Below are positions 6,507-46,259 of a stretch of DNA of 64,000 nt, piece by piece. How positions within the stretch are numbered: the first letter of the stretch is position 1; each line of letters opens with the position of its first letter. Where the stretch lies: contig DGHT01000022.1 in assembly GCA_002392765.1 (NCBI GenBank), forward strand, positions 1,324-65,323. The letters run 5' to 3'. Source of the stretch: Verrucomicrobia bacterium UBA3841. GTDB taxonomy: Bacteria > Verrucomicrobiota > Kiritimatiellia > RFP12 > UBA1067. The translations under genes and the position numbers were made by a program. Below the pieces are notes generated by a model that was not told the DNA's origin, made no database searches, and saw only the letters and a program-made list of their open reading frames with translations.

Positions 6507-6551
6507 ATAATTTTGATTATTTATATGATGTTGCAAGAATAAATGCAAATG

Positions 6552-6589
6552 TGTGGTATTTTTCTCTCGCAGAGGCGCAGAAATGGCGT
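6552..6589. repeat. Left half of dispersed element Y, split by prophage insertion
   Basis: tgtggtatttttctctcgcagaggcgcaga..atggcg matches 60326-60370. Continuity resumes at 39089. Confidence 0.85.
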
Positions 6590-6590
6590 T
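6586..6590. repeat. Target-site duplication, left copy (gcgt or gcgtt)
   Basis: gcgtt at 6586-6590 equals gcgtt at 39089-39093. The uninterrupted paralog has one copy (60368-60372). 4 bp if the phage starts TG at 6590, 5 bp if it starts at 6591. Confidence 0.75.
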
Positions 6591-15580: not shown

Positions 15581-15909
15581 CACTTCCCCTCCTTGAACTC
15601 TTTGCCGTCGACGGTTCCAAGGGATATAGTAAGGATCATGTAGCGCTTTCCATGCTCGGCTGGGCCGTCCTCGTCGGTGGAGGAGAAGAAACTAAGGCCA
15701 AGCAGTCCGCCGGCATACGTGAAGCTCGTGATTATCTGGACGCGCTCGACCGGGTCCTTGTACAACGCGCTCACGTATGCGGTATCCTTGGAGCAAGATG
15801 CCTCGGCATTCTTGATCTCTTCCGCAGCGACAAAATCGCACCTCTCCGCAAACCGCGCAGCTGCCCGCCGCACTTGATTGAATAGACCGCGAATTTTCCT
15901 GGCGTGCAT
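15580..15909 (-). CDS. Hypothetical early protein (109 aa)
   Basis: Starts MHARKIRG at 15909, overlapping the Ner-like stop. The track ORF 15580..16116 fuses two genes. Confidence 0.5.
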   Translation of the reverse strand: MHARKIRGLFNQVRRAAARFAERCDFVAAEEIKNAEASCSKDTAYVSALYKDPVERVQIITSFTYAGGLLGLSFFSSTDEDGPAEHGKRYMILTISLGTVDGKEFKEGK

Positions 15910-16079
15910 CACTTCCCCTCCTTGAACTTGAGCCCGAGTTCGCGCATCTTTGCGCGGAGCGGGCGCGAAATCCTCATACCGCGCGACGCATAGCACACAT
16001 GCGCCGGCGAATATCCCGTCAAGCGCGCGATTTCGCGTACGCCGGCGGCCCGCAATTTCGGTTTTCCTTTTGTTGCCAT
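15909..16079 (-). CDS. Ner/Cro-like small HTH regulator (56 aa)
   Basis: MATKGKPKLRAAGVREIARLTGYSPAHVCYASRGMRISRPLRAKMRELGLKFKEGK (hand-translated). AAAGGAGGG RBS. First gene of the early operon, divergent from the repressor. Confidence 0.55.
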   Translation of the reverse strand: MATKGKPKLRAAGVREIARLTGYSPAHVCYASRGMRISRPLRAKMRELGLKFKEGK

Positions 16080-16129
16080 CTGCCCTCCTTTTTGATATAT
16101 TATTTTTCTGTTCCAACGGAACGAGGGAT

Positions 16130-16159
16130 ATTATACCAAATTGGAATATTGGTTGTCAA
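16130..16159 (-). promoter_or_regulatory. Early promoter (sigma70-like TTGACA-N18-TATAAT)
   Basis: Minus strand: TTGACA (16159-16154), 18-nt spacer, TATAAT (16135-16130), about 45 nt upstream of the Ner-like ATG. One operator repeat lies in the spacer. Confidence 0.6.
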
Positions 16160-16176
16160 TACCAGATTGGAATATT
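16140..16176. promoter_or_regulatory. Putative operators: ATTGGAATATT x2
   Basis: Identical 11-mers at 16140-16150 and 16166-16176 between the divergent Ner-like and repressor genes. Confidence 0.55.
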
Positions 16177-16189
16177 TTTTGGAGGCCGA

Positions 16190-16540
16190 ATGATCGATAA
16201 AGTCAGACGGAATCGCTTTGCGGCGAATTTGAAAGCCTTGCGCACTGGCGCAGGGCTCAATCAGCACGCCCTCGCTAAATTGCTTGGGATAGCACAGCCG
16301 GCAGTTGCCAGATATGAGTCAGGTGTGCGGGAACCTGACCTTGATGATTTGATGTCTATCGCGGATAAACTCAACACGACGCCGAACGACCTTCTAGGAT
16401 TTGCGCCGCAACGATCGACACCATCTGCGCATTCTTGTGCGACCAACATCCACACAGGTAATAACTCACCCGTTGCAATCGGCAATAACATTACACAAAT
16501 GTTAGGACCGTTAAAGACAAAAAGAAGTAAGGATTCATGA
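16190..16540 (+). CDS. XRE-family HTH repressor (Mu c / CI analogue)
   Basis: FAANLKALRTGAGLNQHALAKLLGIAQPAVARYESGVREPDLDDLMSIADKLNTTPNDLLGF. GGAGG RBS. No S24 peptidase domain. Confidence 0.8.
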   Translation: MIDKVRRNRFAANLKALRTGAGLNQHALAKLLGIAQPAVARYESGVREPDLDDLMSIADKLNTTPNDLLGFAPQRSTPSAHSCATNIHTGNNSPVAIGNNITQMLGPLKTKRSKDS

Positions 16541-16544
16541 TGCA

Positions 16545-17243
16545 ATGAATAACCCCGAACGCCTTTTAGAAATATTGTTTAAGTATAAACTTCCGCAACC
16601 TGCGAGTGCCGACGCAGAAGGCATAATACAGGAAACCATTGAATACGCGAAGAAGCGAAATCCCGGCGCAGCCGTTCTCGTTTGTTCTAGAACACTTGCC
16701 GAAGCTATGTCTCGATATACCTTGGCACAAGGTAATGCCGAATTTTCAATTCCTGAGGCAAGTCAACTGCTGGATGCAATTATAAAATATTATTTTTCCA
16801 CCATTTATAAAGCACCCAAGCAAGCGCTTGAAGCGGCGTCAACTGAAGAATGTGTTCAGACACTACTTCGTTTAGAAAATAGTGCGGCACAATACAAGGA
16901 AGACACCGACGCTATTGGACTTAGGATATTTCCCGCAAGAGAATTACGTCTATTTATGCACATTGGAAATAACGAACAAAAAGTTGAGGATTGCAAGCGC
17001 AAATGGATTCAGTGCGGAGGTGGCTTATATGGTGGTAAAATGATAGCATTAACAATGGATTCAATATGGGAGAAAATGTCTATATTCCAACTACCATACC
17101 CACCATTTGATTTTCGGTGCTGTTTTGGAACACTAGGTGTGCCAAGAAAAGACTGTATAAGTATTGGATTGATAAAGGAGCCGAAACACCTAATCTTGAA
17201 GCGCAAGTTGCCAGCAATTAGGCTCTCGATTAAAGCCAAATAG
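16545..17243 (+). CDS. Repressor-linked low-GC accessory protein with MuF-core-like C-terminal domain
   Basis: Begins 4 nt after the repressor stop. Visibly AT-richer than its surroundings. aa 129-211 align with aa 126-205 of the MuF-like protein at 31622..32758 (..W...GG..YGGKMIA...D..WE..S.F..P.PPFD....G.L.V.RK..I..GLI). Confidence 0.6.
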   Translation: MNNPERLLEILFKYKLPQPASADAEGIIQETIEYAKKRNPGAAVLVCSRTLAEAMSRYTLAQGNAEFSIPEASQLLDAIIKYYFSTIYKAPKQALEAASTEECVQTLLRLENSAAQYKEDTDAIGLRIFPARELRLFMHIGNNEQKVEDCKRKWIQCGGGLYGGKMIALTMDSIWEKMSIFQLPYPPFDFRCCFGTLGVPRKDCISIGLIKEPKHLILKRKLPAIRLSIKAK

Positions 17244-17247: not shown

Positions 17248-17284
17248 CCCCCCTTGCACCCCGCTTGCAGGGGGTTTGTTTTAT
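17248..17284 (+). terminator. Intrinsic terminator after the repressor operon
   Basis: ccccct..gca / tgc..aggggg stem followed by tttgttttat. Confidence 0.6.
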
Positions 17285-17322
17285 GGGCGCACGGTCGGTT
17301 GGTCGTGCGCTTTTTTTGTACA

Positions 17323-17403
17323 TTCAAGTTGATTAAGTTGTTGCACGCGTGCAACAACCTCTTCAAGTTGATTTGACCCTGTTTTGCTCATTTGACCCTG
17401 TTT
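17323..17403. promoter_or_regulatory. Dense repeat cluster between lysogeny and late modules
   Basis: ttcaagttgatt x2 (17323, 17362) flanking the 22-bp perfect palindrome gttgttgcacgcgtgcaacaac (17337-17358). atttgaccctgttt x2 (17371, 17390). Confidence 0.5.
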
Positions 17404-17464
17404 CATTCATCTTGATTATTTAGACCATTTTGCTCATTTACCCCCTTGCACCCCCGTGCAGCGT

Positions 17465-17493
17465 TTGAAATCGGCCGTTTGCTATGTCATAAT
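17465..17493 (+). promoter_or_regulatory. Candidate late/middle promoter TTGAAA-N17-CATAAT
   Basis: TTGAAA 17465-17470 and CATAAT 17488-17493. About 160 nt upstream of the first late ORF. Confidence 0.35.
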
Positions 17494-17616
17494 ATTGGCG
17501 TCTTGACCGATCATTGGTCCTCCTGAATGTGTATGGAAAGCAAGCCGCGTCCGGCGGTAGCTCGCGGAAGGTCTCGAACCCCGCGAACCGGACACCCCGA
17601 ACGGGGGTTGAAGCGA

Positions 17617-17651
17617 ATGTAAAATGTAAAGTGTAAAATGTAAAATGTGAG
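17617..17651. repeat. Heptamer array RTGTAAA x4-5 abutting the first late start codon
   Basis: atgtaaa atgtaaa gtgtaaa atgtaaa atgtgag, then ATG at 17652. Confidence 0.9.
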
Positions 17652-18107
17652 ATGGTGGAAACAACGACTATAGACGCGCTGCTGAATGTCGCGGTCAGAT
17701 ATGAACTCTACGGCGTAGATTTCATCCGGGATTTCGACTACGCCACGCTCTGCCGCGAATACAACGGCATCGGCCCGGAATGGGCGGGCGCTCCGATCCG
17801 CGAAAAGACTACGAAGTGGTTCTCCCTCTTCGAGCCCGCGGCGCTTATCCACGACATGCGCAACTACATGTCGGATGGCCGCAAGGAGGCATTCGACGCG
17901 GCGAACCTGGAGTTCCTCGCGAACTGTCGCAAGCTTGCAAACGCCGCGTATCCCTGGTACAGCTGGCGCAGATACCGCGCGCGCTTTGTCGCGCATCTCC
18001 TGTACGATTTTGTGGACGGCCCCGGCGGATGGATGGCTTGGCGCGAATGCTGGGAGAAGAGGAAAGAAAGAATACAAGGAGATGGAGCGTCCCGCTCCGT
18101 CGTATAG
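17652..18107 (+). CDS. Hypothetical protein at the endolysin position (YNGIG...HD motif)
   Basis: First late gene. EYNGIGPEW....AALIHDMRNY. The C-terminus is read through the cloverleaf element. No lysozyme, transglycosylase or amidase motif recognised. Confidence 0.5.
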   Translation: MVETTTIDALLNVAVRYELYGVDFIRDFDYATLCREYNGIGPEWAGAPIREKTTKWFSLFEPAALIHDMRNYMSDGRKEAFDAANLEFLANCRKLANAAYPWYSWRRYRARFVAHLLYDFVDGPGGWMAWRECWEKRKERIQGDGASRSVV

Positions 18108-19903: not shown

Positions 19904-21349
19904 GTGAACGAAGCCGACACATCATATTTCCTGCCATACCAGGAAGCGTGGATCAACGACGACTCGCCGCTGAAGGTGGCAGAGAAGTCGCGCCGCGTCG
20001 GCTTCACCTACGCGTCGAGCTACCGCATGTTCCAGAAGTGCATGAGGCGCGGCAAGGGCTTCACGCAGTGGGTGAGCTCGCGCGACCGGCTGACGGCGCA
20101 GGAGCTCATACGCGACTACATCGCCATGTGGTGCAAGCTCGCCAACGTCGCCGCCCAGGGACTGACCGGCGAAGACATCCAGGTGATCGACACGGAGAAG
20201 GACATAACCGCCTTTGTCTGCACGTTCCCGAACGGCGCGCGCATCGTCTCGCTCTCCTCGACTCCGGAGGCGTTCGCCGGCAAGGGCGGCGACGTGTTCC
20301 TGGACGAAGTGGATCTGCACCGCGACTCGGGCGCGCTCATCGACATGGCGTATCCCTGCATCATGTGGGGCAACCAGCTTGAGATGGTCAGCGCCTACCG
20401 CGTGGACGGGTCGAAGGACACGCCCTTCGCGAAGCTCGTCGCCGAGGCGAAGAAGGACAACCCGCAGCATGCGTCGCTGCACCGCGTGACGATTCACGAC
20501 GCGGTGGCGCAGGGGCTCGTCGAGAAGATCAACGCGAAGTCGGGCCGCAGCCAGACGCGCGAGGAGTTCCTGCAGCAGACCCGCGCCGGATGCCGCACGC
20601 TCGCCGCATGGGAGTCGCAGTTCGAGTGCAAGGTGCAGGACGCGGGCGGGAAGCTGCTGCCGACGAAGATCCTCGCTCCGTGCGAAATGCCGGCGGAGGA
20701 GATCGCGGCGATCGAGCGCCGCTATCCGGACGCGCCGCGCTTCGCGGGCTTCGACATCGCCCGTCGCCGCCACGCGAGCGCCTGGAGCGAATGGCTGCAG
20801 ATCGGCGTCACATTCTTCCTCGTCAGGCGCGAGACCTTCCACGACATGGAGTTCGAGGCGCAGCGCAAGTTCCTCGAAGCTCAGATGCAGGGCCGCACTT
20901 CCAAGCGCATCACGCGGCTCGCCATGGACGCGACGGGCCTCGGCATGGAGACTGCGGAGTGGGCCGCCAAGAAATGGCCGGGCCGCGTCGACCAGGTGAA
21001 CCTGGAGTCGCACCGCCGCCACGAGATATGCATGATGTTCCAGGACTGGTTCAACACCGCGAACGCGAGGATCCCGGCGGACGCGGTACTTCGCGAGGAC
21101 TACCAGACGCCCGTCCTCAAGACCGCCGCGAACGGCAACGTGCGCGTGTCCGTCCCGGAGTTCGAGAACGACGAGGGCGAGACGTCTCACTGCGACGAGT
21201 TCATGGCGGGGGTGCTGGCGCGCTCCGCCGCCGACGCCGGCGGCGCGGAGCCCGCCATGCAGGCGACGGCGGAGATCGATGACGACGATTTGGGGAACGG
21301 GGAATGGGGAACGGGGAACGGAACCCTTACGAGAAGGAGCTTCATGTGA
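19904..21349 (+). CDS. Terminase large subunit (Mu gp28-like)
   Basis: GTG start at 19904. FLPYQEAWINDDSPLKVAEKSRRVGFTYASS.. N-terminal ATPase pattern. Followed by the portal gene. The C-terminus (LGNGEWGTGNGT) is encoded by a GGGGAAY array. Confidence 0.8.
   Translation: MNEADTSYFLPYQEAWINDDSPLKVAEKSRRVGFTYASSYRMFQKCMRRGKGFTQWVSSRDRLTAQELIRDYIAMWCKLANVAAQGLTGEDIQVIDTEKDITAFVCTFPNGARIVSLSSTPEAFAGKGGDVFLDEVDLHRDSGALIDMAYPCIMWGNQLEMVSAYRVDGSKDTPFAKLVAEAKKDNPQHASLHRVTIHDAVAQGLVEKINAKSGRSQTREEFLQQTRAGCRTLAAWESQFECKVQDAGGKLLPTKILAPCEMPAEEIAAIERRYPDAPRFAGFDIARRRHASAWSEWLQIGVTFFLVRRETFHDMEFEAQRKFLEAQMQGRTSKRITRLAMDATGLGMETAEWAAKKWPGRVDQVNLESHRRHEICMMFQDWFNTANARIPADAVLREDYQTPVLKTAANGNVRVSVPEFENDEGETSHCDEFMAGVLARSAADAGGAEPAMQATAEIDDDDLGNGEWGTGNGTLTRRSFM
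21292..21321. repeat. GGGGAAY heptamer array in the terminase 3' end
   Basis: ggggaacggggaatggggaacggggaacgg, identical 30-mer to 22942-22971. Same family as umuC 1287-1314. Confidence 0.95.
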
Positions 21350-23283
21350 TGAACATCCTAAGCGGCATCAGGCGGTTTTTCTTCCAGAAGGCGTCGAACG
21401 ACTTCGACGCGAACGAGGCGTTCCGCCGCAACCAGCTCAGGTACAACGCGCTGCGCGCGCTCGACCCGGACGTCCTGGTGCGGCACCTCGAGGCGTTCCA
21501 GCGCGGCGACATCTGCGGGCTCGAGCGCGTCATCGACGAGTTCGAGCAGCGCGAGGACAAGATGCGCATCGGCTCGTTCAAGATGGCGGCCGCCGTCTCG
21601 TCCAAGCCGTGGAAGGTGCAGATACGCCAGGGCGAGGAGGAGAACCCGCGCGCCAAGCTGCACCAGGAGCACTTGACGAAATTCTGGAACCGCGTCGAGG
21701 CGACGGACGCCTTCTGCCGCAATAGGAAAGGCGGGCTCAGGCTCCTAGTCAAGCAGATGATGAGCGCGCAGTCGCGCGTCTACTCCGTCCACGACATCTG
21801 CTGGAAGGTCAACGGCGACGGCACATTGAACGCGACGTTCACGCACGTTCCGGCGTGGTGCTTCGAGAACCGCACCGGACGGCTCAGGTACATCAGGAAC
21901 GACTGCGACACCGTCGGCGCGGAGATGCCCGACGGCGAATGGCTCGTCACCGTGGGCGAAGGCGTCGGCGTCGCGGCGGCGGTGATCGCCATGGCCAAGC
22001 GCCTCTCCTGGAACGACTGGCTGCTCTTCTCGGAGAAGTGCGGCATGCCGGTCATCCTGGGCAACACCAACGCGCAGCGCGATACGCCCGCATGGGCGGC
22101 GATGAGCCGCGCCATCCGCGCGATCGCGCCGAAGACCGGGCTTCTCGCCGACACCGGCACGACCCTGAACGCCGTCTCGATGGGCGCGGGCGGACAGAAC
22201 ACATACCGCGAGCTCGTCGACACGGTGGACCGTGCGATATCCGCGCTCTACCGCGGCGGGGACCTCGCCACGCAGTCGAGCGGACCGGACGCCGCGGGCG
22301 TCAACGCCCAGGCGGGCGAGTCGGAGCTGATGGACGACGACGGCTGCAAGATGGTCGCGGAGACGCTGCGCGACCAGGTTGAGAAGTTCGTGATCCGGTT
22401 CGAGCTCGGCGACTTCGAGCCGCTCGCGGAGATCGTCATCAACCCGCCAGCCGACACCGACGACGTCGACCGCGAGATGAAGATCGACACCCACCTCTCC
22501 GGACTCGGCGTGAAGCTGTCGAAGAAGGACGCGCTCGCCCGGTACGGCCGGACGGAGGCGGAGGACGAAAACGACGCCCTTGCCTTGTCGTCGGCACCTG
22601 TGACAGATTCCGATTCGCAGAAACTCACCGCTCAGGACATCGCATCGCTTATCTATCCGCTCAGAGCTGGTGGATATAAAATCTCCCAGCCGGTAGACGA
22701 GAGAGCGACAGGTCTCAAACTGGAGGAAATCACCCCTGGAGATGGAAGTGACGGCAGCAAAAACCAGCTTGCGAACGAGAAGACAGGCAAGACCCCCTTG
22801 CAAAACGACGAGAACCGCTTGCAAAACGCGCCGCGCGTTTCGGACGGACAAGGAGACCCCTCGGGCGAGGACGCGCTTGTAGAGGCTCTAAGCGGCCTGT
22901 TTGAGAAGTCGCTTGCCGAGGCAGCGGCTGACGCCGCCGCCGGGGAACGGGGAATGGGGAACGGGGAACGGGAACCGGTAGGGGCCGACCACCGGTATCC
23001 CCCAGCCGAAGGCTGTCCGCGAAGCGGATGCCCTAGCAGGGGTGCGGCCCAGGAAGAGCTTGCGAACTCCACCGACGCCCAGGGCAACGAGCACGCCGAA
23101 GCCGGATCCAATAACGGTGGCCAGTTCGTCAGCAAGGGTGAGGGCGGCGAAGCCCACACGCCTGAACAAAAGAAACGCATCGACGGCACGATGGCCGTGC
23201 AAACGGTTGTTCCGGACACGAAGCGCAAGACGCTCTTCATAACTTCGACAAGGATTGAAAAGCGAAAGGACGGGCACTTATAG
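21349..23283 (+). CDS. Portal protein (Mu gp29/DUF935-like) with extended C-terminus
   Basis: ATG overlaps the terminase stop and GAGAAGGAG lies upstream. MNILSGIRRFF..FRRNQLRYNALRALDPDVL..FQRGD. About 130 extra C-terminal residues contain repeat-element-encoded sequence. Confidence 0.8.
   Translation: MNILSGIRRFFFQKASNDFDANEAFRRNQLRYNALRALDPDVLVRHLEAFQRGDICGLERVIDEFEQREDKMRIGSFKMAAAVSSKPWKVQIRQGEEENPRAKLHQEHLTKFWNRVEATDAFCRNRKGGLRLLVKQMMSAQSRVYSVHDICWKVNGDGTLNATFTHVPAWCFENRTGRLRYIRNDCDTVGAEMPDGEWLVTVGEGVGVAAAVIAMAKRLSWNDWLLFSEKCGMPVILGNTNAQRDTPAWAAMSRAIRAIAPKTGLLADTGTTLNAVSMGAGGQNTYRELVDTVDRAISALYRGGDLATQSSGPDAAGVNAQAGESELMDDDGCKMVAETLRDQVEKFVIRFELGDFEPLAEIVINPPADTDDVDREMKIDTHLSGLGVKLSKKDALARYGRTEAEDENDALALSSAPVTDSDSQKLTAQDIASLIYPLRAGGYKISQPVDERATGLKLEEITPGDGSDGSKNQLANEKTGKTPLQNDENRLQNAPRVSDGQGDPSGEDALVEALSGLFEKSLAEAAADAAAGERGMGNGEREPVGADHRYPPAEGCPRSGCPSRGAAQEELANSTDAQGNEHAEAGSNNGGQFVSKGEGGEAHTPEQKKRIDGTMAVQTVVPDTKRKTLFITSTRIEKRKDGHL
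22942..23050. repeat. GGGGAAY array plus element X copy, in-frame inside the portal gene
   Basis: 30-mer array 22942-22971, then ggtatccccc-cagcc gaa ggctg-tccgc gaa gcgga-ccct agc aggg (22994-23050). Translated as GERGMGNGERE...YPPAEGCPRSGCPSRGAAQ. Confidence 0.9.
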
Positions 23284-31102: not shown

Positions 31103-31625
31103 GATATCCGAATCGGATCTGGCCGACCTGCTGCCAAGCGAAAACAAGCTTGCGCAGGCCGCTGGCCGCGGCGTATCCAATGCGGTCAAGCGACATCTGG
31201 CGGAACGGGACTCCAGGGCGAGGCCTGACGACGGAATGCCGCATACAGGTTATTACGGAGATGCGGCGGGAGGCGTCACTACCGACGTATCCGGCAAGAT
31301 GGCGGTTGTCACGATTCACAAGGAGGGTGTCGCGCTGCACTATTACGGCGGCGTCGTATATCCGACGAAAGGACACAAAGCGCTTGCCATACCGAAAAGC
31401 CCGGCGACAGCGGGAAAGCGTCCCGCCGAAATCGATCCCGACCGTTCGCGGTTCGCGCTCGTATGGCCCAAGGGAAAGACCGTTGGAACGCTGCGCGACA
31501 AAAAATCCGGGGACATAGTGTATCTGCTTGTCAGCAAGGCGACGATTAAAGCAGACAAGACCATCCTCCCGACAGAGGACGAAATGTTCGAAGCCGGCAA
31601 GTCCGCGATGGAGGCGATACTATGA
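31074..31625 (+). CDS. Virion morphogenesis / HK97 gp10-like protein
   Basis: Adjacent to the MuF-like gene. ..SNAVKRHLAE...VTTDVSGKMAVVTIHKEGVALHYYGG.. The start could be 31074 or 31086. Confidence 0.3.
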   Translation: MWLQMHLTLKISESDLADLLPSENKLAQAAGRGVSNAVKRHLAERDSRARPDDGMPHTGYYGDAAGGVTTDVSGKMAVVTIHKEGVALHYYGGVVYPTKGHKALAIPKSPATAGKRPAEIDPDRSRFALVWPKGKTVGTLRDKKSGDIVYLLVSKATIKADKTILPTEDEMFEAGKSAMEAIL

Positions 31626-32758
31626 CCGAAGCGGAGCTCATACTTCAGAAAGCGCTTGTCGGATCCGATCTGGATTCCTCGCAGTGGAACCAGATACAGG
31701 CGGGCTTCAGGAACCGCGCGTTCTTCTCTTCGCGCGTCGCCGAGGTCAACATCCTCGCGGCAATGCGCGAACGTGTTGCAAAGTACGCCGAGGGCGAAAC
31801 CGATCTCTCGAAGATTCGCATGATGATCCGGGATGACCTGCGCAGGGCGAACTACTCTCCAAAGCCCGGCGAGGAAGGCACGATCCACGACCTCTTCAGC
31901 CAGGCGCGGCTTGACGTCATCATCAAGACCAACGTCGCGCAGGCTCGCGGCTACATGCAGTTCGCGGAGGGAATGAGCCCCGGCGCGTTCGCCGCGTTTC
32001 CCGCGCAGGAATTCATGCGCGTACGCTATTCGCGGCACCCGCGCGGCGACTGGCCGCAGCGATGGGCGAAGGCTGGCGGCAAGGTTTACGGCGGCAAGAT
32101 GATCGCCATGAAGGACGACCCGGTATGGGAGCGGCTTTCGGTATTCGGCAATCCGTTCCCGCCCTTCGACTGGGGCAGCGGCATGGGCGTCCTCGATGTG
32201 GACCGCAAGACCGCGATCCAGCTCGGGCTAATCAGCGACGAGGAGCTGCGCGGCAAAACCGCCGCGCTCCGCGAGAAGCCCGTGCCCGACTTCAACGCCA
32301 ACCTGCAGGCGACCGTGCCTGTGCCGAACCTCCGGCACGACTCGCTCTGCGGGAAGATACTCATAAAGAACTTCGGCGACCAGGTTGCGATTGAGAACAG
32401 CGTCGTCAGCTGGCAGGGGAATCTGATTCAGGACGTAATCGCCGGTCGGCGCAAGAAGGCGCAGCTTGGCGTCGGATACAACGGCCGCCCCCTGCCTCTT
32501 TCGCACAACTTCTTCAGGGAACACCTCTCGAAGCACTTCGGCGACAACGAGACAAACCCGCAATCCATCCCTCTGACGGTCGGGGACTACGAGCTGCTGC
32601 CGACAGTGTGGCGCAGCCCGGACAGGGTGACAAAGAGCCGCGACCGCGACCATCTTGAGTTCGAGACGTTCGATGGCGGTATCCTGCATCTATTCGTCTC
32701 TGACATCAAGGGCATAAGGAGTTTCTACAAAACGAAATCCGGGAGGAGCCTGCAGTGA
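31622..32758 (+). CDS. MuF/SPP1 gp7-like head morphogenesis protein with C-terminal nuclease-like (PBECR-type) extension
   Basis: MuF-like core (..IIKTNVAQARGY...RVRYSRHPRGDWPQRW...PFPPFDWG..), then about 150 aa with ..HNFFREHLSKHFGD..LTVGDYELLPTVWRSPDRV..LEFETFDGGILHLFVSD..IRSFYKTK. Confidence 0.55.
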   Translation: MTEAELILQKALVGSDLDSSQWNQIQAGFRNRAFFSSRVAEVNILAAMRERVAKYAEGETDLSKIRMMIRDDLRRANYSPKPGEEGTIHDLFSQARLDVIIKTNVAQARGYMQFAEGMSPGAFAAFPAQEFMRVRYSRHPRGDWPQRWAKAGGKVYGGKMIAMKDDPVWERLSVFGNPFPPFDWGSGMGVLDVDRKTAIQLGLISDEELRGKTAALREKPVPDFNANLQATVPVPNLRHDSLCGKILIKNFGDQVAIENSVVSWQGNLIQDVIAGRRKKAQLGVGYNGRPLPLSHNFFREHLSKHFGDNETNPQSIPLTVGDYELLPTVWRSPDRVTKSRDRDHLEFETFDGGILHLFVSDIKGIRSFYKTKSGRSLQ

Positions 32759-32853: not shown

Positions 32854-33282
32854 ATGAAGATCAAGGAATTCCAGGAAGCGATAGCCGACGAGTTGAACGG
32901 CATTGACGAGCTTGTTCAGGGCGGATGCAAGGCATTTGCAGAGGACTCCCGGGAAGTCTACAAGGGGTCCGACCAGCACGTCCAAAGCGGGAAGGTCGCC
33001 ATTGTCGTGGTGACGCCGGAGATGACAAGAAACGGCTGCTCGTCCGATGCCATTTCGGCGGAAACGCAGCTGCTTATCCAGTGCAGCGAAAAGCCAATGG
33101 TGGCGCGCGCCCAGCCGGGCGTCATAACCGCGCTCGACGCGGCGGAGATCGTCATGTACGCGCTTGACGGCTCGCAGTTCTGCTGGCTCGATACGCGGCA
33201 GACGCTCGACCGGCAGGCGGGCGTTCTGACTGCTACAGTCACTTTTGCGACATCGATGTCATTCGAGAAGTGTAAAGTGTAA
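32854..33282 (+). CDS. Hypothetical head-tail joining/tail terminator-position protein
   Basis: 142 aa upstream of the tube gene. Call is by position only. Confidence 0.3.
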   Translation: MKIKEFQEAIADELNGIDELVQGGCKAFAEDSREVYKGSDQHVQSGKVAIVVVTPEMTRNGCSSDAISAETQLLIQCSEKPMVARAQPGVITALDAAEIVMYALDGSQFCWLDTRQTLDRQAGVLTATVTFATSMSFEKCKV

Positions 33283-36042: not shown

Positions 36043-36048
36043 AACCCG

Positions 36049-39300: not shown

Positions 39301-42300
39301 TTATTGCGCAGCGCCGGCGCCATGCTCCACATACCCGCGCTCGAAGTCGATGACCGTTGCGGGAAGGCCGTTGTCCCACTGGTGCCACCATGCGTCGAGA
39401 CGTCCAAGATAGAAGTCGGCGATCAGCCCGGACCACATCCTCGCCGCATAGTCGTTCGTCGGCGGTCCCCATACGGTGAGTATCCGCCTTGCGTTCTTCA
39501 CATAAATATCCGCAAGCGCCGGATCGCCCTCGGCGCAATCCCGCGCCATTGCGACCCATCTCTCCATGTTGAGCGTCGGATGGTTCCTGAGCCTCGCGTC
39601 AATGTCGAGAAGTCCCTCCCGTATCTGGCGCCGGAGCTCAAGCGCACGCTCCGTGTTCAGGGCTTCGCGTTCGCGCTGCTCTTCGTACATAAGCCTGTCG
39701 ATGCGGTATCCGTCGACCAGAGACGTGTATTCCGCAAGGTCGAAGCGGAAAAGCGGCGAAGCCGCAAGGACAGGGTCCTTCGCCGCTTCGCGCATCGCGG
39801 CCGCACCTTCCTCCCGCAACGCCATCTCATCGTCGGCGATCTCGCCCCACCAGGCGCTGCCGCCGGCGGACGGACGCTCCACCGGCTTCTTGCCGCCGGG
39901 ACCGGAACTCCAGTGCGGTTCCGCCGGACTCGACTGCCAGCGGAAGCGCGGATGGTCGTTGAACCTGGACCAAGGTCCGCGCAGAAACGCATCCCAGGCT
40001 CTCTCCAGCGCCGGGGAACATGCCCCGTACCGGCACAGAGACCATCGGCGGAACCAGTCGTGAAGATCGATCCTTGCCGCGCCCTCCGGCCGCCAATAGG
40101 AATCGTAGACAAGCTCGAACACCGGCTCCATGCACTCCACGCCCTCCGGCGCAGTGCCAAAGCCGACAAGATTGCCGCGATTGGACGATGCAAGCGCGCC
40201 GTCGCGACCGTTCGCGTAGAACTCAAGCGGCCCGGACCCGAAGTCGTTGGCGCCGCCCATGTTCGGGATCAGGCTCCATATCCATTCCTTTCCGCCGAAT
40301 CCCGCGAAACGGTCCCAGTTCCACTTGCCCTTGCCGTAGTGCCGCGTATAGTCGACCGCAAGGTCGAGGACAAGCATGGCGTCGTCCGGGATGTTCTCCG
40401 TAAAGGCCCTGTATCTGTCAGCGGTCCAGCAGTCCTCGAGGAACATCCAGCCCTGCACAGCCCACGTGGCGTCAGGGTTGGCGTCGCGGATTCCATCAAG
40501 TATGTTTTCCGCGCAGTGCGCAAGGCCCCTGCGAATATCCTGCTCGTCCGTCCAGGGGAACTTGAGTTCGTTGAAGCTGTCGGCGAGGTAGTACCTGGTC
40601 CTGCCGAACTCCTTCTCCCACTCCTCCACCCATACGCGAGCCATCTCCCTGAATATGGGCTGGTCGGGAGAAAGGAACCACGCATGGTTCGTGTCCCAGC
40701 GGACTTCCTTGAGCTTCACGTCAGTCCGCACTTCCCTCAGAGCCTCCGGAACGAACCCCGCGAAGCCGTGCACGACCGGCTCAATGCCAAGCTCGCGCAT
40801 CCGGGAGAGTACCGCATGCTGAAGTCTCACCGACCTCTCGCGCCACTGGCGCGGCAAACCGTCGGGATATCCGGAGAGGTTGCCCATCCTGAACCACGGC
40901 AGATGCGCGGGACCGACAAACCACTTCTCTATCTTCTCCTCCGGGACGCCAAAGCGCCTCAGCATGCGAAACGCAATCTCCTCGTCGGCGATCGTTGCAA
41001 GCGACATGTTTATGCCGTGCAGCGCCATCCAGTCCAGCTCCTCCATCCAGCGCTTCTCGCTCCAGAACGGCATGGAGTAGCCGAACGTCACAACGTTGAA
41101 AGCCTGAAAGTACCTGACGGGCGCCTCGACACGCACATCCGGCGAAGGCGCGAACGCGGCAGCCGCGTCGAAGCGCTTTCCGCTCCATGTCGCAATCGCG
41201 GCGTTCTTCGACTTCGCGTTGTCATAGAAGGCACGGCAGATCGCAGTTGGAGACGACCCGCGCAACGTCCACCCGCCGTCCGCGATCTCGTACACCTGCC
41301 GTCCCCCGGGGGCGCACGGAATATCCTCTATCCTGACCCTCGCGGCAACTTCCTCGCCGGCAAAGCGCGCGATGACGCCGCGCGACGGATGCGCCGCCGC
41401 ATTTTCAGCGGTCACCTCCAGCGAGGCCTTCAGGCGGATATCCTCGCTGCTGGAGCCGACAAGCACCTCGAACGTCCCTGGCTCAACGACCCACTTCAAA
41501 TTCGCATCGAGAAGCGCCAGATGGTGCGGCTCGAGGGCAAAGGATATCCGCCTTGTCTCCATCGGCTCCAGATGGACCTTTTCAAACCCGCGGAGCATGG
41601 AGTCCCACGTGACCACGCTCGACTCGACGTCCTTCACATACAGCTGCACGACCTCCGAGCCCGCCATCCATCCAGTGTTGGTGACGTCCAGCGAAACGAC
41701 GCGCCGCGTCGCCGCGTCGGCCACGCGGGGTTCCACGCTGATGTTCGAATAGGCGAAACGCGTATAGCTCAGCCCGTAACCGAACGGATACAGCGCCCCT
41801 TGTACGCGAGTATGCGCAAACTCGTCGGTCTGGCCGTTGTGCGAACTTTTCCGGAACGGAAAGTTCAGCTCGATCTGCCCGACCGTCTTCGGGAACGTCA
41901 CGTTCAGCCGTCCGCACGGATTCACCTCGCCGAACAAAGTGCGAGCGACGGCGACGCCGACCCTGCTTCCGCCGAACCACGTCTCAAGGATCGCCGCGAC
42001 GTTGCGCTCGGCCCAGTTGACGGTGACGGGCTGGCCGTTGACCAGGACAAGCACTACCGGCCTGCCCGTCGCATGCAGACGCTTCAGCAGCATTTCCTGC
42101 CGGCCGGGGAGGTCCAGCGACGTACGCGACCTGCACTCGCCGGTGATCTTCTCGCTCGTGCCGAGGACCGCCACCACCACGTCCGCGTCCGCCGCGGCCG
42201 CCACGGCCTCGTCCATCATCTCCATTTCGTCCCTGTCTGGCTCTGTCGGGACGATCTCGCTGTCCGGCCACGTCCTGTCGACCGTTTCGCAACCCTTCCT

Positions 42301-44937
42301 GTAGACAACTTCCGCATGCCCGTCCAGATATTCCCTGAGCCCGCGCAATATGCTGACGTCGTCGTTGTCCCGCGGTCCGTAGCGGCTCGTCATGTAGTCT
42401 GTCTCGTCCGCGAGCGGACCGGCGACCAGTATCTTTCCGACGCGGCTCCGGTCCAGCGGCAGCACGCCGGTGTTGCGCAGGAGCACCAGCGACTCCTCCT
42501 GGATCCGGTCGGCTGTCGTGGTCCGCGGCCCCGCCCCGTCTGCACTCGACTCCATGAACACCTGGAGCCGCGCGCCCCATTCGCGGCGAAACTGCCCTGG
42601 ACTGCTCTTCGGCAAGGCGCACTTGACGAGAAGGTAGTTGTAACCCTTCGTCACCTTGTGCCGGAACCACTCCGGCGCCATCAGCATGCCTTCCGTCCAA
42701 GGGAGGCCGCGATAGACCTCCTTGTCTCCGATGAACGCCTGGAGCCGCGATGCACCTCCAAGCGCGAAAACCGCCTCGCCCGCCTCGTCGCTCCAGAAGC
42801 GGAACATCAGATACGCGAGCCGCCCGCGCTCGCTGCCGTAGACGTCGCGCAAGTCGAAGAACACTTCCGGCGTCCGCTGCGGAACTTTGTAGAGGTTGCG
42901 GTACTTCAAGTCGTCCCACCCTTCCGGCTCGAAGACCTGTTCCTCAATCGGCTTCGTCTCGTCGTAGGGATACGCCTCGCCGGACGTGTAGGCGGCGACG
43001 ACAGGCAGTTCGACGCGCTTGACCGTATCGGGGAAGCACGTAATGCGCCCAAGCGTCGTCGCATACGGTACCAGTTCGATCGCCGTTCTCCTTCCAGTCG
43101 GATGCACAAAGAGCGGCGGATCGGGCATGAAGCGGTTGAAGTCCGCTGTTCGCCACTCCTCGATTTCGCACACCGGCACCTTGAGCACCATCGCCGGGGA
43201 CTCGAACGGATAAGAGCTCTTCCTGAACTCGACCTTTAAATCGGCTTTCTTGAGCTCGTTCGTGTCAAAGGCATAGTTCCAGGGGCCGTTAGGCACAATC
43301 CTGAGCGCCCCAAACGCGTCGCCGGGCTCTTCTTCGACAACTTCGCTCGGCACGGCGTATGCGAAGGTAATCGGTCCGCGCTCAAACCAATGCCAGTTGC
43401 GTTCGCTCTTCAAGGCGACCTTCGTGGGAAGCGGAACGACGAACGTGTCACCGTCCTTCCATACGCGTTTTTCGACAAGGACCTTTCCCGCATCGGGCCG
43501 GTCGCACCACGACGGAACGCGGTACTTGAGCGGCATCTCGACGGTTCCGCCGCGATAGACGATTCTTGCTTCGTCGCCAAATGGATAGCCGCCGTCAAGC
43601 TCCTCCAGCGTGTACTTTACGCCGCGATATTCGCCGGAGAGCGTGGACGGACCGTAGACCATCTTGACCGGCGCGCCCGTCTCAGCGTCCTTGAGCCACA
43701 GACGCGCAACGTACGCGGGCATGGCGCGACCGATGTTGCCGGTGCAGCACTGCGGAAAGTGCGCCTTGCGGTACTGCCGCCAGGTGGATTCCGCATAGTT
43801 GAAGTGGGCGCTTTGCGAAAACGGCGTGCAAAACGCCTGGTTTACGGACGAGAGATACTGGTGGCGCCTGAAGTCTTTGGTGCAGCTTCCCGGAAGCGCA
43901 TTGTAGACGATCCGCTCCATGCGGTCAGCCGCCGCGACGCTCCCCTCCGCCATCAGATAGTAGCCAAGCGCCCATGTCATGTCGGCAGCGAGACATGTTT
44001 CGTGCCCCTGCCTCGGATCGCGTCCGGAAAGAAACTCGTTGCCCGAAATCTGTCCATCCGCCTGTTCATTGACGGCAAAGACATCCTCCATAGCGCACCG
44101 GCCTTTTTCAAGAAGCGCCTTGTCGCCGGTGTAGAGGTAGAGCAGCGCGGGGATTTTAAGCGATTCGCAAAAGGAAACGCCGTGGTCGTGGATGCGCCGC
44201 TCGTTGCCGAACTCGCGGCAGTAGCGCGTCCCCCTGTAGGAGGCGAGCGCGTCCTCGAGAAGAGACTTGTCGCCCGTCCGCTCGTATATCTTGCACATTC
44301 CCTCGGCGGCAAGCATGTCGCGTCCGTCCCACTTCGCACGGTCGGCCTTGTGCGCGGCAAAATGCCGCGCAAACGCTTTTGTCACCTCGGCCTCGCGCCC
44401 TGTCGCCTCTCCCCACGCCCAAATCGCGCGGAAAAACACGACAAGCGGCCATTGCGTCCCCGAGTTTGAAAGCGGCGTGAAGATGTCGCCGTCATTCGCA
44501 GGATGGGCAAGAACCCACTCGAAGGACCTGGCCGCATCCTCCATCAGCGCAGGAGCGTCTGCAAGCGCGGCGACGCGGACCATGCCGTCCAGCAGGTATG
44601 CGCTCTGCTCGAAAGGCCACCACGAACCGCTCGCCCAGAAATCCTCCTTCGTGCCTTCCTTTTTCTGGTCGCTGCCGTTGTAGACGCCCTCGGTGAAGTA
44701 TATTTCCTCCATCCGTCCTTCCCAAAGGGATCCGTCGAACGGATAGCCAAGCTTCTCGCGGTGGCCGGTCAAGCCATCCGCCTGACGGCGCAGAAACTCC
44801 AGCAAATACCCGGTTGGCTTAACTTCGCCGGTCTTCGCCTCGCGACACACGCCGTAGTAAGGCACCTCGGCTGCGGCAGCTTCAAGACAGCAGATCGCAC
44901 ACAGCGTCGCAAGGCTTGCTATGCACATGGTTCTCAT
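39301..44937 (-). CDS. Secreted tri-modular glycosidase: GH127-like (DUF1680) + GH3 C-terminal/Fn3-like + GH89 alpha-N-acetylglucosaminidase
   Basis: Start MRTMCIASLATLC (signal peptide) at 44937, overlapping the upstream stop. HETCLAADM and FPQCCTGNIGR (GH127 Cys/Glu site). LVLLRN..ITGECRSRTSLDLPGRQ..GYGLSYT (GH3-C plus Fn3-like). WMALHGINM..VGPAHLPWFRMGNL..HGFAGFVP (GH89). One uninterrupted frame. Confidence 0.75.
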   Translation of the reverse strand: MRTMCIASLATLCAICCLEAAAAEVPYYGVCREAKTGEVKPTGYLLEFLRRQADGLTGHREKLGYPFDGSLWEGRMEEIYFTEGVYNGSDQKKEGTKEDFWASGSWWPFEQSAYLLDGMVRVAALADAPALMEDAARSFEWVLAHPANDGDIFTPLSNSGTQWPLVVFFRAIWAWGEATGREAEVTKAFARHFAAHKADRAKWDGRDMLAAEGMCKIYERTGDKSLLEDALASYRGTRYCREFGNERRIHDHGVSFCESLKIPALLYLYTGDKALLEKGRCAMEDVFAVNEQADGQISGNEFLSGRDPRQGHETCLAADMTWALGYYLMAEGSVAAADRMERIVYNALPGSCTKDFRRHQYLSSVNQAFCTPFSQSAHFNYAESTWRQYRKAHFPQCCTGNIGRAMPAYVARLWLKDAETGAPVKMVYGPSTLSGEYRGVKYTLEELDGGYPFGDEARIVYRGGTVEMPLKYRVPSWCDRPDAGKVLVEKRVWKDGDTFVVPLPTKVALKSERNWHWFERGPITFAYAVPSEVVEEEPGDAFGALRIVPNGPWNYAFDTNELKKADLKVEFRKSSYPFESPAMVLKVPVCEIEEWRTADFNRFMPDPPLFVHPTGRRTAIELVPYATTLGRITCFPDTVKRVELPVVAAYTSGEAYPYDETKPIEEQVFEPEGWDDLKYRNLYKVPQRTPEVFFDLRDVYGSERGRLAYLMFRFWSDEAGEAVFALGGASRLQAFIGDKEVYRGLPWTEGMLMAPEWFRHKVTKGYNYLLVKCALPKSSPGQFRREWGARLQVFMESSADGAGPRTTTADRIQEESLVLLRNTGVLPLDRSRVGKILVAGPLADETDYMTSRYGPRDNDDVSILRGLREYLDGHAEVVYRKGCETVDRTWPDSEIVPTEPDRDEMEMMDEAVAAAADADVVVAVLGTSEKITGECRSRTSLDLPGRQEMLLKRLHATGRPVVLVLVNGQPVTVNWAERNVAAILETWFGGSRVGVAVARTLFGEVNPCGRLNVTFPKTVGQIELNFPFRKSSHNGQTDEFAHTRVQGALYPFGYGLSYTRFAYSNISVEPRVADAATRRVVSLDVTNTGWMAGSEVVQLYVKDVESSVVTWDSMLRGFEKVHLEPMETRRISFALEPHHLALLDANLKWVVEPGTFEVLVGSSSEDIRLKASLEVTAENAAAHPSRGVIARFAGEEVAARVRIEDIPCAPGGRQVYEIADGGWTLRGSSPTAICRAFYDNAKSKNAAIATWSGKRFDAAAAFAPSPDVRVEAPVRYFQAFNVVTFGYSMPFWSEKRWMEELDWMALHGINMSLATIADEEIAFRMLRRFGVPEEKIEKWFVGPAHLPWFRMGNLSGYPDGLPRQWRERSVRLQHAVLSRMRELGIEPVVHGFAGFVPEALREVRTDVKLKEVRWDTNHAWFLSPDQPIFREMARVWVEEWEKEFGRTRYYLADSFNELKFPWTDEQDIRRGLAHCAENILDGIRDANPDATWAVQGWMFLEDCWTADRYRAFTENIPDDAMLVLDLAVDYTRHYGKGKWNWDRFAGFGGKEWIWSLIPNMGGANDFGSGPLEFYANGRDGALASSNRGNLVGFGTAPEGVECMEPVFELVYDSYWRPEGAARIDLHDWFRRWSLCRYGACSPALERAWDAFLRGPWSRFNDHPRFRWQSSPAEPHWSSGPGGKKPVERPSAGGSAWWGEIADDEMALREEGAAAMREAAKDPVLAASPLFRFDLAEYTSLVDGYRIDRLMYEEQREREALNTERALELRRQIREGLLDIDARLRNHPTLNMERWVAMARDCAEGDPALADIYVKNARRILTVWGPPTNDYAARMWSGLIADFYLGRLDAWWHQWDNGLPATVIDFERGYVEHGAGAAQ

Positions 44938-46259
44938 TTTGTCCCTCCTGTCATGAAGTATGCGAGCATGATGCGGCCGATAATCTGCTTGCCGAGCTCG
45001 CCGGAATGGACGAAGTCGCGGCTGTAGTATTGGTTGGGCAGCCCCGAACCGTAAAGCCACGTGTAGCAAGGCAAGAACTCGTCCCACCACTGCATCCTGT
45101 TCGCCGCGCAGAGTTTCTTCAGCGCTCCGTATTCCGTCTCCATCTCGCGCATTCTGAACTGCGACGGGCCGAACGGCATCTTCGGGAGCGGCGCATCCAG
45201 GTTGTCGTCGTCGTACGGACGCGTATCGACGGAAAGCGGCGAATTGACGAGCAGGACTTCGCAACCGAGACGTTCGCGGGCAACCTTCGCTACGCGCACC
45301 ATCGCGTCCGCGCCGGTCGGACCAACATCCTTCCCGCCTTTCTCGTCGTGCTTCCTGTTGTTGGAGATACCGCCGATTATCAGGATGTCTGGCTTGTGGT
45401 CTACAACATACGGATAGAAGTTCTCGGCGAGAATGTAATGCCAGCAGCCCGTTCCGCCGCGCATGGAGAGAATCCACTCGACGTTCGACTGCGGGAATTC
45501 GCGCTTGACGAGCGCGTGGAACTGCGAGTGGAACGTATCCTGTATGATCGAATCGCCGAGCATCACGACGCGCCACGGCTTGCCGGTCTTGAGCGCATCC
45601 ATCGTGCGCGGCAGAAGCGCAGTCCAGTCGCCTTCGGGCGCGAAGTCGAGCGGCGCTTTCGCTGCGATCTCGCCGTAGATGCGGTCGGCATACTCCGCCG
45701 CGTCCTCCCATGTCGCCGTTTCGATCTTGACGTTGGAAACCTCAAGCGTACACCTGTCGCCCTTCTTCTCGTTCATGGCCCACGGCTTCTGGAAAAAGAG
45801 TTCGAAGGAATCCACCTCGTCCCATGCGTACAAAACGCGCTCGTAATGCCTCGCCGCATCCACCGCAGGATACATCGTGTCGTAGCAGTCGGGCAGAACC
45901 TTGCCGTTCCTGTCGTAGAAGAACACCCCCTGGTTGCAGCGCTGCGGTCTGCCGCCCGGAGTGCCGGACATGAACTCGTACTTCGCATCGAACGAGAACT
46001 TGAAGTAAACGCCCTTGCCTGGCTCCTTGTGCGGAAGACGCAGCTTCTTCGTAGTAAGCCGGCCCTTCGCGCCCTCCGTCATCTCGATCTGCTCGAACTT
46101 CGCGCAGACGCGGTCGTTGTCCGTGAACGTGACGTTCCCAAACCTGAAGCCGGGCGTCCTGTCGGTTACGACGCCCTTCGCCTCGAATATCGTCCCGGCG
46201 TTCGCCGTGACAGCGGCGGCGAATACCGCCGCCAGGATTGTTCCGTACAGCATTCTCAT
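44934..46259 (-). CDS. SGNH/GDSL-family carbohydrate esterase with N-terminal beta-sandwich-like domain
   Basis: VVMLGDSI, IIGGISNN and DFVHSGE blocks. Signal peptide MRMLYGTILAAVFAAAVTANA. GGAAAGGAGG RBS. Confidence 0.7.
   Translation of the reverse strand: MRMLYGTILAAVFAAAVTANAGTIFEAKGVVTDRTPGFRFGNVTFTDNDRVCAKFEQIEMTEGAKGRLTTKKLRLPHKEPGKGVYFKFSFDAKYEFMSGTPGGRPQRCNQGVFFYDRNGKVLPDCYDTMYPAVDAARHYERVLYAWDEVDSFELFFQKPWAMNEKKGDRCTLEVSNVKIETATWEDAAEYADRIYGEIAAKAPLDFAPEGDWTALLPRTMDALKTGKPWRVVMLGDSIIQDTFHSQFHALVKREFPQSNVEWILSMRGGTGCWHYILAENFYPYVVDHKPDILIIGGISNNRKHDEKGGKDVGPTGADAMVRVAKVARERLGCEVLLVNSPLSVDTRPYDDDNLDAPLPKMPFGPSQFRMREMETEYGALKKLCAANRMQWWDEFLPCYTWLYGSGLPNQYYSRDFVHSGELGKQIIGRIMLAYFMTGGTK

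Follow-up and report, generated by a model that had tools for sequence, protein, structure and literature searches.

A 232-aa protein encoded immediately behind the repressor of a Mu-like prophage, here termed ORF232, was found to be a new divergent member of the known MuF superfamily and a paralog of a second MuF-type protein of the same phage. The gene is located in a window of 64,000 nt (the whole stretch of DNA that was analysed) from a contig of the Verrucomicrobia bacterium UBA3841. The gene is genuine, evolves under purifying selection and belongs to a small clade of related phages in which a repressor-linked, core-only MuF recurs, an arrangement that to our knowledge was previously undescribed. 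As a repressor-coupled paralog without an effector domain, ORF232 also represents a new variant of prophage accessory/defence cargo. We consider this finding to be of moderate to high interest, because the arrangement is conserved and suggests a form of mimicry that can be tested; the function is one that we infer.

ORF232 and the repressor transcription unit

The immunity region of the window phage was found to be composed of the following genes and signals:

15909..16079, minus strand: first gene of the divergent early operon, 56 aa (ORF call)
16073..16101, plus strand: promoter-like site TTGCCA-17-TATATT, TG-extended, weaker than the minus-strand site (consensus match only)
16130..16159, minus strand: perfect sigma-70-like site TTGACA-18-TATAAT, facing the early operon (consensus search)
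16133-16155 and 16159-16181, no strand assigned: two 23-nt direct repeats, ATACCA(A/G)ATTGGAATATT.. (sequence)
16190..16540, plus strand: c-type repressor candidate of the HTH_3/Xre type, 116 aa (Pfam E 3.6e-14)
16545..17243, plus strand: ORF232, stand-alone core-only MuF-superfamily protein of the short-form clade, 232 aa, ATG start
17250-17274, plus strand: terminator-like hairpin 1, with TTTGTTTT, closing the repressor-ORF232 unit
17285-17312, plus strand: terminator-like hairpin 2, with TTTTTTT, in tandem with hairpin 1 and closing the same unit

The protein encoded at 16190..16540 was found by PHROG search to match many 'transcriptional repressor' families. Its TGA stop codon ends at position 16540 and the ATG of ORF232 (16545) starts 4 nt past it, exactly as the earlier note had stated. 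No promoter-like site was seen between the repressor stop and the ORF232 start; the sole site of this kind inside ORF232 (17049-17077, 9 of 12 matches) is positioned near the 3′ end of the gene, while the promoter-like site at 16073..16101 could drive a joint repressor-ORF232 unit. At the level of sequence, ORF232 thus appears to share a transcription unit with the repressor. The terminator proposed earlier for this unit (17248-17284) covers hairpin 1, and the second hairpin was also present. The two 23-nt direct repeats (16133..16181) overlap the early promoter and are candidate operators, and the product of 15909..16079 is taken as a candidate Ner/Cro-like protein from its position and size alone. 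The early operon was read onward in L001, a metagenomic copy identical to the window phage, and was found to encode a DUF3102 protein (faint match), a 735-aa protein, a TniB/AAA protein and Mu Gam; the 735-aa protein is of transposase size and had no Pfam match.

The base composition of ORF232 was found to be AT-richer than the phage backbone, in agreement with the earlier note, at 41.5% GC compared with 59.7% for the whole phage. The repressor gene had a GC content of 49%, the gene of the 378-aa late paralog 61.5% with a GC3 of 81.5%, and the GC3 of ORF232 was 35.6%; in the late genes measured, GC3 ranged from 74 to 91% (vs 36% in ORF232). When relatives were compared, the slot behind the repressor was found to be variable. 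It is empty in the close relative L077, where the repressor-like ORF is followed directly by the first late gene and the terminase and portal are 83% and 84% identical, respectively, to those of the window phage (the portal over the first ~410 aa), and it is occupied by two unrelated AT-rich ORFs in another relative, L088. ORF232 is therefore accessory cargo. The earlier designation as a moron is justified in part, as ORF232 displayed the deviant base composition and the presence/absence among close relatives that are expected of such a gene; it is not a classical moron, however, since instead of forming an autonomous unit with its own promoter and terminator it is followed by terminator-like hairpins but lacks a promoter of its own and shares the unit of the repressor.

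The distribution of the gene was examined by BLAST and by a neighbor-joining tree, in which the short forms were monophyletic with 12 leaves, including ORF232, seven close relatives and four distant proteins, namely P0142 (42% identity), P0200 (33%), P0139 and P0154. Sequence comparison indicates that this short-form clade arose as a branch of the virion MuF-like family found in Mu-like transposable phages, among them phages of PVC-group bacteria (Kiritimatiellae, Opitutus, and Coraliomargarita). Wherever DNA was available, the clade gene was found in a Mu-like phage, with the divergent early (transposition) operon on one side and the late operon on the other, the latter ordered as a conserved first late gene of 143-161 aa (as called/listed), terminase and Portal_Mu. 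A survey of repressor-adjacent genes in related Mu-like phages revealed the short MuF gene directly behind a repressor-like HTH ORF in five diverged lineages, a repeated tight junction that is consistent with the earlier placement of ORF232 in the repressor transcription unit:

Window: 4-nt gap between the repressor and the short MuF gene
L008: repressor-like ORF stop at 5424, short MuF start at 5426 (1-nt gap)
L003: GTGA overlap of the repressor-like ORF and the short MuF gene
L052: repressor-like ORF stop at 7999, short MuF start at 8001 (1-nt gap)
L056: 9-nt gap between the repressor-like ORF and the short MuF gene

The same order was also detected in L002, and in both of the loci that were read downstream, the window and L003, the short MuF gene was followed by a terminator-like hairpin. 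At the locus of the distant member P0154 (L089) the HTH gene is absent upstream, and the host genes mraZ/rsmH adjoin. Searches of GenBank phages by tblastn revealed no match to the ORF232 clade, IMG/VR contained long-form relatives only, and the short-form clade was not found among the GTDB representative genomes. The impression of a one-off acquisition by this phage is not upheld by these results, as ORF232 belongs to a small conserved clade found in the same position.

Identity of the shared domain

The second MuF-type gene of the window and the ORF that follows it are as follows:

31622..32758, plus strand: 378-aa late protein, divergent MuF core (~residues 1-230) and PBECR3-like C-terminal domain (homology)
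32854..33282, plus strand: 142-aa ORF directly downstream of the MuF-PBECR3 gene (ORF call)

When ORF232 residues 153-210 were aligned to residues 147-204 of the 378-aa protein, 29 of the 58 ungapped positions were identical; this count, made by hand in the earlier note, proved exact and is well above the numbers obtained in a shuffle control (mean 11.5 and maximum 15 identities, 200 shuffles). The similarity was significant by BLASTP (38% identity over 111 aa, E 2e-23), and the ORF232 family was aligned to the long family by hhalign over residues 63-214 with a probability of 99.9% (E 3e-34); thus, the earlier proposal that ORF232 is paralogous to the phage's own MuF-type protein is supported by both methods. 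Only these two copies of the domain were detected when the six-frame translation of the window was searched with the domain HMM. Counter to the earlier description of an N-terminal 125 aa that is unrelated and joined to a core half, homology was found to extend back to residue ~63 by hhalign, and BLAST alignments to some long members started from ORF232 residue ~25. These findings reveal ORF232 to be a nearly complete core-only MuF and not a fusion to an unrelated N-terminus, with an N-terminal half that, as judged from the alignments, is the more diverged part of the same MuF core. A resemblance noted by eye between ORF232 residues 36-57 and the 'RAFFSA' segment of the 378-aa protein was dropped, as it conflicts with the BLAST and hhalign registers.

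The curated models of the superfamily did not detect this domain. No match to PF04233/PF06152 or to the NCBIfam SPP1 gp7 model was found for ORF232, the 378-aa protein or 123 family representatives (E ≤ 0.001); the two window proteins remained unmatched by the same models at E ≤ 1, and searches of PDB chain sequences with these two proteins returned nothing meaningful. Mu gpF itself matches PF04233 (6e-32). By profile-profile comparison, the long family was aligned to phage Mu gpF over 182 columns (hhalign 95.8%, E 8.3e-9; gpF residues 15-202). This alignment spans the region of the PP..C.C motif and places the family blocks FPAQE...R, GRMIAL and PYPPFDFGSGMGV on YPYW...DGRTRPE, NMVFQY and HYPPNGWNCRCRV of gpF, respectively. 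In addition, Mu gpF and the 378-aa protein both matched phrog_220 ('minor head protein and DNA pilot'), and did so over the same stretch. The ORF232 family was not significantly similar to gpF when compared directly by hhalign, and its link to MuF is transitive via the long family. Profile-profile homology was the criterion by which Jamet et al. added MuF3 and MuF4 to the superfamily (PMC5576092), and it was found here directly for the 378-aa family and transitively for ORF232. On this sequence evidence, the shared domain is assigned as a divergent MuF core at the superfamily level; the 'MuF' label given earlier holds at this level, based on the profile-profile and PHROG findings, but not at the level of Pfam PF04233, NCBIfam or the PDB, all of which miss the branch.

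An exhaustive profile search with the shared domain identified 1,893 representatives of 50%-identity clusters at E ≤ 0.001 (1,263 at E ≤ 1e-10), thus defining a large MuF-like family that escapes the current models of Pfam and NCBIfam. The domain was usually positioned at ~residues 110-230 of proteins of 260-600 aa. Scanning of the 123 representatives revealed (i) 21 with C-terminal PBECR1/2/3; (ii) seven ADP-ribosyltransferase matches, including four to ADPrib_exo_Tox and three to ART that overlap in at least one protein; and (iii) other C-termini including LPD1, InPase and TopoIB (topoisomerase IB). The same layout, a carrier core followed by a variable effector C-terminus, has been described for the MuF of polymorphic toxins and of polyvalent proteins (PMC5576092, PMC5512222). 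Core-only family members of ~265 aa (Opitutus, Coraliomargarita, and metagenomes) were found among the late structural genes, where they follow a Mu gp36-like gene, and short MuFs form the majority of the superfamily (PMC5576092). Thus, a short length is normal for the MuF-like family, and what is unusual for ORF232 is its location in an immunity operon and the coexistence of a full-length paralog.

The C-terminal third of the 378-aa protein matched PBECR3 only weakly when searched directly (E 0.28); however, the C-terminal HMM of its family matched P0210 and P0249, both of which are PBECR3 proteins above the Pfam cutoff. The effector-type C-terminus ascribed earlier to this MuF-type protein can thus be specified as PBECR3-like by transitive HMM match, and the protein shares the architecture of Mu gpF (MuF plus MuF_C/PBECR). 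Together with the 142-aa ORF directly downstream, which had no family match, the gene appears from its sequence to display the layout of MuF polymorphic toxins, in which a MuF core with a C-terminal effector domain is followed by an ORF of less than 150 aa. MuF genes are located in the packaging/head module, typically right after the portal gene; the 378-aa gene is in the late block yet 8.3 kb downstream of the portal gene at 21349..23283, and ORF232 is in the immunity operon. PHROG, Pfam and PADLOC scans of ~25 neighboring late and right-end ORFs returned almost nothing and thus gave little head/tail context for the 378-aa gene. A portal-PBECR3 fusion was observed in the related phage L054.

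The ORF232 protein itself (26 kDa) was found to be intact and conserved over its full length in eight close cluster-level homologs (230-233 aa, 51-71% identity). Comparison of the window and L008 copies, the one pair in which dN/dS was not saturated, gave a ratio of 0.14. An N-terminal signal peptide was not recognisable by eye, so the protein is probably cytoplasmic. AlphaFold2 with a 150-sequence alignment generated a single compact model (pLDDT 93.1, pTM 0.85), superseding an earlier 8-sequence run in which the C-terminal half had a pLDDT < 50. In the predicted structure, a small alpha/beta domain comes after six or seven helices, and the basic tail (~211-232) is modeled as disordered. When this model was searched with Foldseek, no match at E ≤ 0.001 was found in the PDB; matches in BFVD were weak (E 0.05-1), and the best of these were 'Phage head morphogenesis domain' and 'Minor capsid protein' with alignment over the whole length. 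These fold matches are a consistent hint of MuF homology.

When compared to the virion forms, ORF232 was found to be without their first ~35-60 residues (which include the conserved 'LR.RAFFSA' segment) and without everything past the core, including the effector domain. Most of the near-invariant positions of the long family are kept in ORF232, namely P130, E133, W154, G158, G159, G164, M166, A168, W175, S179, F181, P186, P187, F188, D189, R201 and G208, which correspond to the motifs FP.E, W, GG, G.MIA, W, S.F, P.PPFD, R and G. ORF232 has substitutions at two arginine positions that are 96-98% invariant across the virion family (L136 and E144), and also at W150 (to C), S192 (to C), G193 (to C) and M194 (to F). 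The core of ORF232 is acidic to neutral, with a pI of 6.6 compared with 9.1 for the paralog, and ORF232 has gained a conserved basic tail (residues 211-232, pI 11.3). The residues C150, C192, C204 and H139 are invariant in the clade; the distant members P0200, P0154 and P0139 keep W150 and S192, do not have most of the clade-specific substitutions, and have C204. A zinc site formed by H139, C150, C192 and C204 was considered but set aside, as most of these residues are absent in the distant clade members.

Possible roles of ORF232 in the lysogen

The function that we tentatively favor for ORF232, as a possibility that deserves serious consideration, is that of a MuF mimic expressed in the lysogen to interfere with the head assembly or effector delivery of competing phages. 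In this proposal, (i) ORF232 would be transcribed along with the repressor in the lysogen; (ii) it would mimic the virion MuF core, as its predicted fold and most of the family-invariant motifs are kept; (iii) it would occupy the partner of MuF, most likely the portal or procapsid, in related phages growing in the lysogen; and (iv) as a result, the heads of the competitors would either fail to mature or do so without a functional MuF-effector. Occupation of the MuF partner in competitors is suggested by the combination of kept motifs with the loss of the two arginines, the 'LR.RAFFSA' segment and the effector domain, and the portal/procapsid is the probable partner because SPP1 gp7 (MuF) is held in the capsid complexed with portal proteins, as summarised in PMC5576092. 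The outcome would be a defence of the Tab/TerI type, in which the invader replicates but its progeny are non-infectious. On induction, either shut-off of the repressor promoter or an own portal that is insensitive would spare the resident phage. Counter to the mimicry, the N-terminal segment missing from ORF232 could itself be the portal-binding part of virion MuFs, and the distant member P0154 (L089) is without an upstream HTH gene. No candidate for a counter-defence gene was identified, and no PADLOC model matched ORF232, which leaves it without a link to any known defence family. The broader proposal, that a clade of Mu-like prophages domesticated a MuF copy as a lysogen-expressed mimic that poisons the portal-MuF assembly or injected-effector delivery of rivals, is somewhat doubtful; if true, this would be the first anti-phage/anti-effector device derived from a virion-protein paralog and wired directly to the repressor. 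MuF proteins load effectors and toxins into phage heads by a mode of action that is itself poorly understood, and a repressor-coupled, effector-less MuF paralog may serve as a natural dominant-negative probe for the binding partners of the MuF core.

The main rival to mimicry is that ORF232 acts as a lysogeny-coupled antidote that neutralises an injected MuF-PBECR3 effector, either of its own phage or of homoimmune superinfecting phages, either through pairing with the MuF core of the effector or through competition for the host target or activator of the effector. In this way, the lysogen would be spared harm from effectors that arrive with DNA which the repressor silences. The predicted co-transcription with the repressor and the paralogy of ORF232 to the carrier domain of a PBECR3-type protein are in line with this role. 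MuF-effector proteins are proposed to be injected with DNA (PMC5576092, PMC5512222), and a lysogen would presumably face the injected effectors of homoimmune phages. Nonetheless, we consider an antidote unlikely. In the MuF-toxin systems that have been characterised, the immunity gene adjoins that of the toxin, and its product binds the toxin domain or reverses its effect instead of acting on the MuF domain (PMC11699363, PMC5576092), whereas ORF232 is 14.4 kb from the 378-aa gene, resembles the carrier domain of the encoded protein, and is not similar to its C-terminal domain. The position of an immunity gene is already taken by the 142-aa ORF at 32854..33282, a finding which also weakens the earlier suggestion of an immunity partner for a MuF-linked nuclease. 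Moreover, ORF232 is absent from close relatives with the same head genes (L077), and the PBECR3-like domain is a putative effector, with the PBECR domain of Mu gpF itself predicted to be inactive (PMC5512222).

Re-use of the MuF fold for a regulatory or host-directed role unrelated to virion proteins, such as modulation of repressor stability or induction, nucleic-acid binding via the basic tail, or lysogenic conversion, appears distinctly unlikely. The clade's own invariant residues (C150, C192, C204, and H139) and its conserved basic tail, which is absent from virion MuFs, would fit such a role, as would the unrelated cargo found in the same slot of other phages and the GTGA overlap in L003, a form of translational coupling which suggests stoichiometric co-production of the repressor and the short MuF. 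However, ORF232 retains most of the motifs that do not vary among virion MuFs, which argues for the preservation of some ancestral interaction or activity, and most of the clade-specific substitutions are not found in P0200, P0154 and P0139 (W150 and S192 kept; C204 retained). In addition, ORF232 matched no DNA-binding or enzymatic family.

It is improbable that the phage needs ORF232 for assembly of its own head, as an additional structural or morphogenetic MuF that happens to be encoded outside of the late operon. While its core-only relatives of ~265 aa are ordinary virion-module genes and short MuFs are the superfamily majority (PMC5576092), two terminators stand between ORF232 and the late genes, ORF232 is coupled to the repressor, its GC3 is 36% compared with 74-91% in the late genes measured, and a full-length MuF-like gene is already present in the late region of the phage. 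Furthermore, ORF232 is absent in L077 despite terminase and portal (first ~410 aa) identities of 83-84%, and some residues shared by all virion forms are no longer present in its clade. A decaying, functionless remnant of a duplication or insertion would account for the AT-rich composition and accessory distribution but is disfavored as very improbable, given the dN/dS of 0.14, the intact, full-length gene in all eight close clusters and in distant members with the same position, and the confidently predicted fold (pLDDT 93.1).

Comparison with known systems

ORF232 is tied to the MuF superfamily (Mu gpF/gp30, SPP1 gp7, PF04233, MuF1-4; PMC5576092) by the profile homology of its wider family to Mu gpF, by the PHROG region common to gpF and the 378-aa paralog, and by the architecture of the long members, a core with variable C-termini; core-only short forms occur in the virion modules of related phages. 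It differs in being encoded in an immunity operon, rather than beside the portal/terminase, with a coexisting full-length paralog, in belonging to a family that PF04233/NCBIfam miss, and in the loss of two invariant arginines and the N-terminal segment. A muf-like gene in an immunity operon is not described in the MuF papers cited here, and the word 'repressor' is absent from PMC5576092. Among the MuF-PBECR/polyvalent proteins (Iyer et al. 2017, PMC5512222), the 378-aa paralog is recognisable as 'MuF + PBECR', as is Mu gpF, whereas ORF232 is without an effector domain and outside of the virion gene block. Unlike ORF232, the known immunity genes of MuF toxins are neighbors of the toxin gene, and their products target the toxin domain (PMC5576092, PMC11699363).

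The closest parallel in proposed logic is with Tab and TerI, in which a prophage protein made in the lysogen targets the virion assembly of related invaders. As described in the relevant sections of the sources, Tab of the Mu-like phage JBD26 is made constitutively by the prophage and blocks the tail assembly of invaders (PMC10884400), and TerI of Listeria prophages blocks their packaging (bioRxiv 10.1101/2025.02.27.640495). The same sections do not present Tab or TerI as structural-protein paralogs, and they describe dedicated counter-defence genes in the late operon, whereas none was identified here. The likeness is thus one of proposed logic, with no sequence relationship expected. ORF232 may be regarded as a candidate prophage defence of a new class, acting by structural mimicry, that would extend the recently found assembly-blocking defences of the Tab/TerI type.

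Exclusion genes are also found in the repressor transcription unit of lambda (cI-rexAB). In the Mu-like Pseudomonas phage Fc02, exclusion is mediated by genes, including olg1, that are apparently in the repressor transcript (PMC9936078); these genes precede the repressor and their products are small and unrelated, whereas ORF232 is downstream and a structural-protein paralog. Common to cI-rexAB, Fc02 and, as predicted from sequence, ORF232 is an accessory gene that shares the transcript of the repressor in the lysogen, with Fc02 also being Mu-like. Satellites are known to encode homologs of the structural proteins of their helpers, as exemplified by the PICI capsid homolog Ccm. The principle of a diverged copy of a virion protein that interferes with the assembly of another element is shared between Ccm and the proposed role of ORF232; however, Ccm is encoded by a satellite and acts on the helper phage, while ORF232 is encoded by a prophage and would act on its competitors.

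The slot after the repressor, the portal C-terminus and the AT-richer right end

The slot directly after the repressor gene, which in the window holds ORF232 (a core-only MuF-like protein), was filled in L088, a related Mu-like phage, by two different AT-rich ORFs (6367-7204), neither of which was matched in Pfam or PADLOC:
L088, first slot ORF: 102 aa, GC3 0.31
L088, second slot ORF: 171 aa, GC3 0.42
The slot is therefore a cargo hotspot and a worthwhile place to mine for genes. The portal was also examined. The window portal (21349-23283) was found to carry an unannotated C-terminal extension of ~244 aa, and the close relatives L075-L077 aligned to it over the first ~411 residues only. A fusion was detected in a related phage:
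L054, 8080-10365: 761 aa, Portal_Mu joined to a nuclease domain of the PBECR3 type
Together, the fusion and the unmatched extension suggest that the portal C-terminus is also a variable module, possibly effector-bearing. The right end of the prophage (window 35185-39412) was AT-richer (GC 0.49-0.55), and its ORFs of 285, 224, and 764 aa, all without a match in Pfam, PHROG, or PADLOC, could be tail-fibre/host-range genes or further cargo. An ORF of 2,136 aa on the minus strand (39301..45711) starts just past this stretch.

Candidate control regions and the first late gene

Direct repeats were identified at the early promoter:
16133-16181: two 23-nt direct repeats, ATACCA(A/G)ATTGGAATATT.., with a short palindrome inside each
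Both overlap a perfect promoter-like site on the minus strand (16159->16130) and are candidate operators for the repressor or Ner. On the late side, repeat-rich non-coding DNA (17320-17650) separates the terminators from the first late gene:
17324-17371: 24-nt inverted repeat
17371-17415: 19-nt tandem repeat, x2.3
17249 and 17441: CCCCCTTGCACCCC
17616-17648: AATGTAA, x4.7
Analogous repeats were present in L003 (7440-7640), and the window stretch could function as a late promoter or as an activator region. The gene that follows was strongly conserved, with 52-64% identity among four phages:
Window, 17652-18107
L003, 7802-8278
L052, 9115-9546
L056, 1609-2049
Its product displays the motifs YNGIG, FEPAALIHD, SDG, and W(R)RRYRA; the sole PHROG match, to 'virion structural protein', was weak.

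The MuF-like family at large

The shared-domain profile was matched at E<=0.001 by 1,893 representatives of 50%-identity clusters, and the core of this large family (P0129-P0277) is without a model in Pfam or NCBIfam. One distant short-form relative adjoins host mraZ/rsmH:
L089, 2957-3805: P0154, 282 aa
Upstream of P0154 there was no HTH gene, nor was a transposase operon seen within the locus in view, and terminase and Portal_Mu genes come after it; this arrangement suggests that the element may be truncated or differently organised. Another member, the polyvalent protein P0244, is 1,919 aa long and includes InPase and ART domains.
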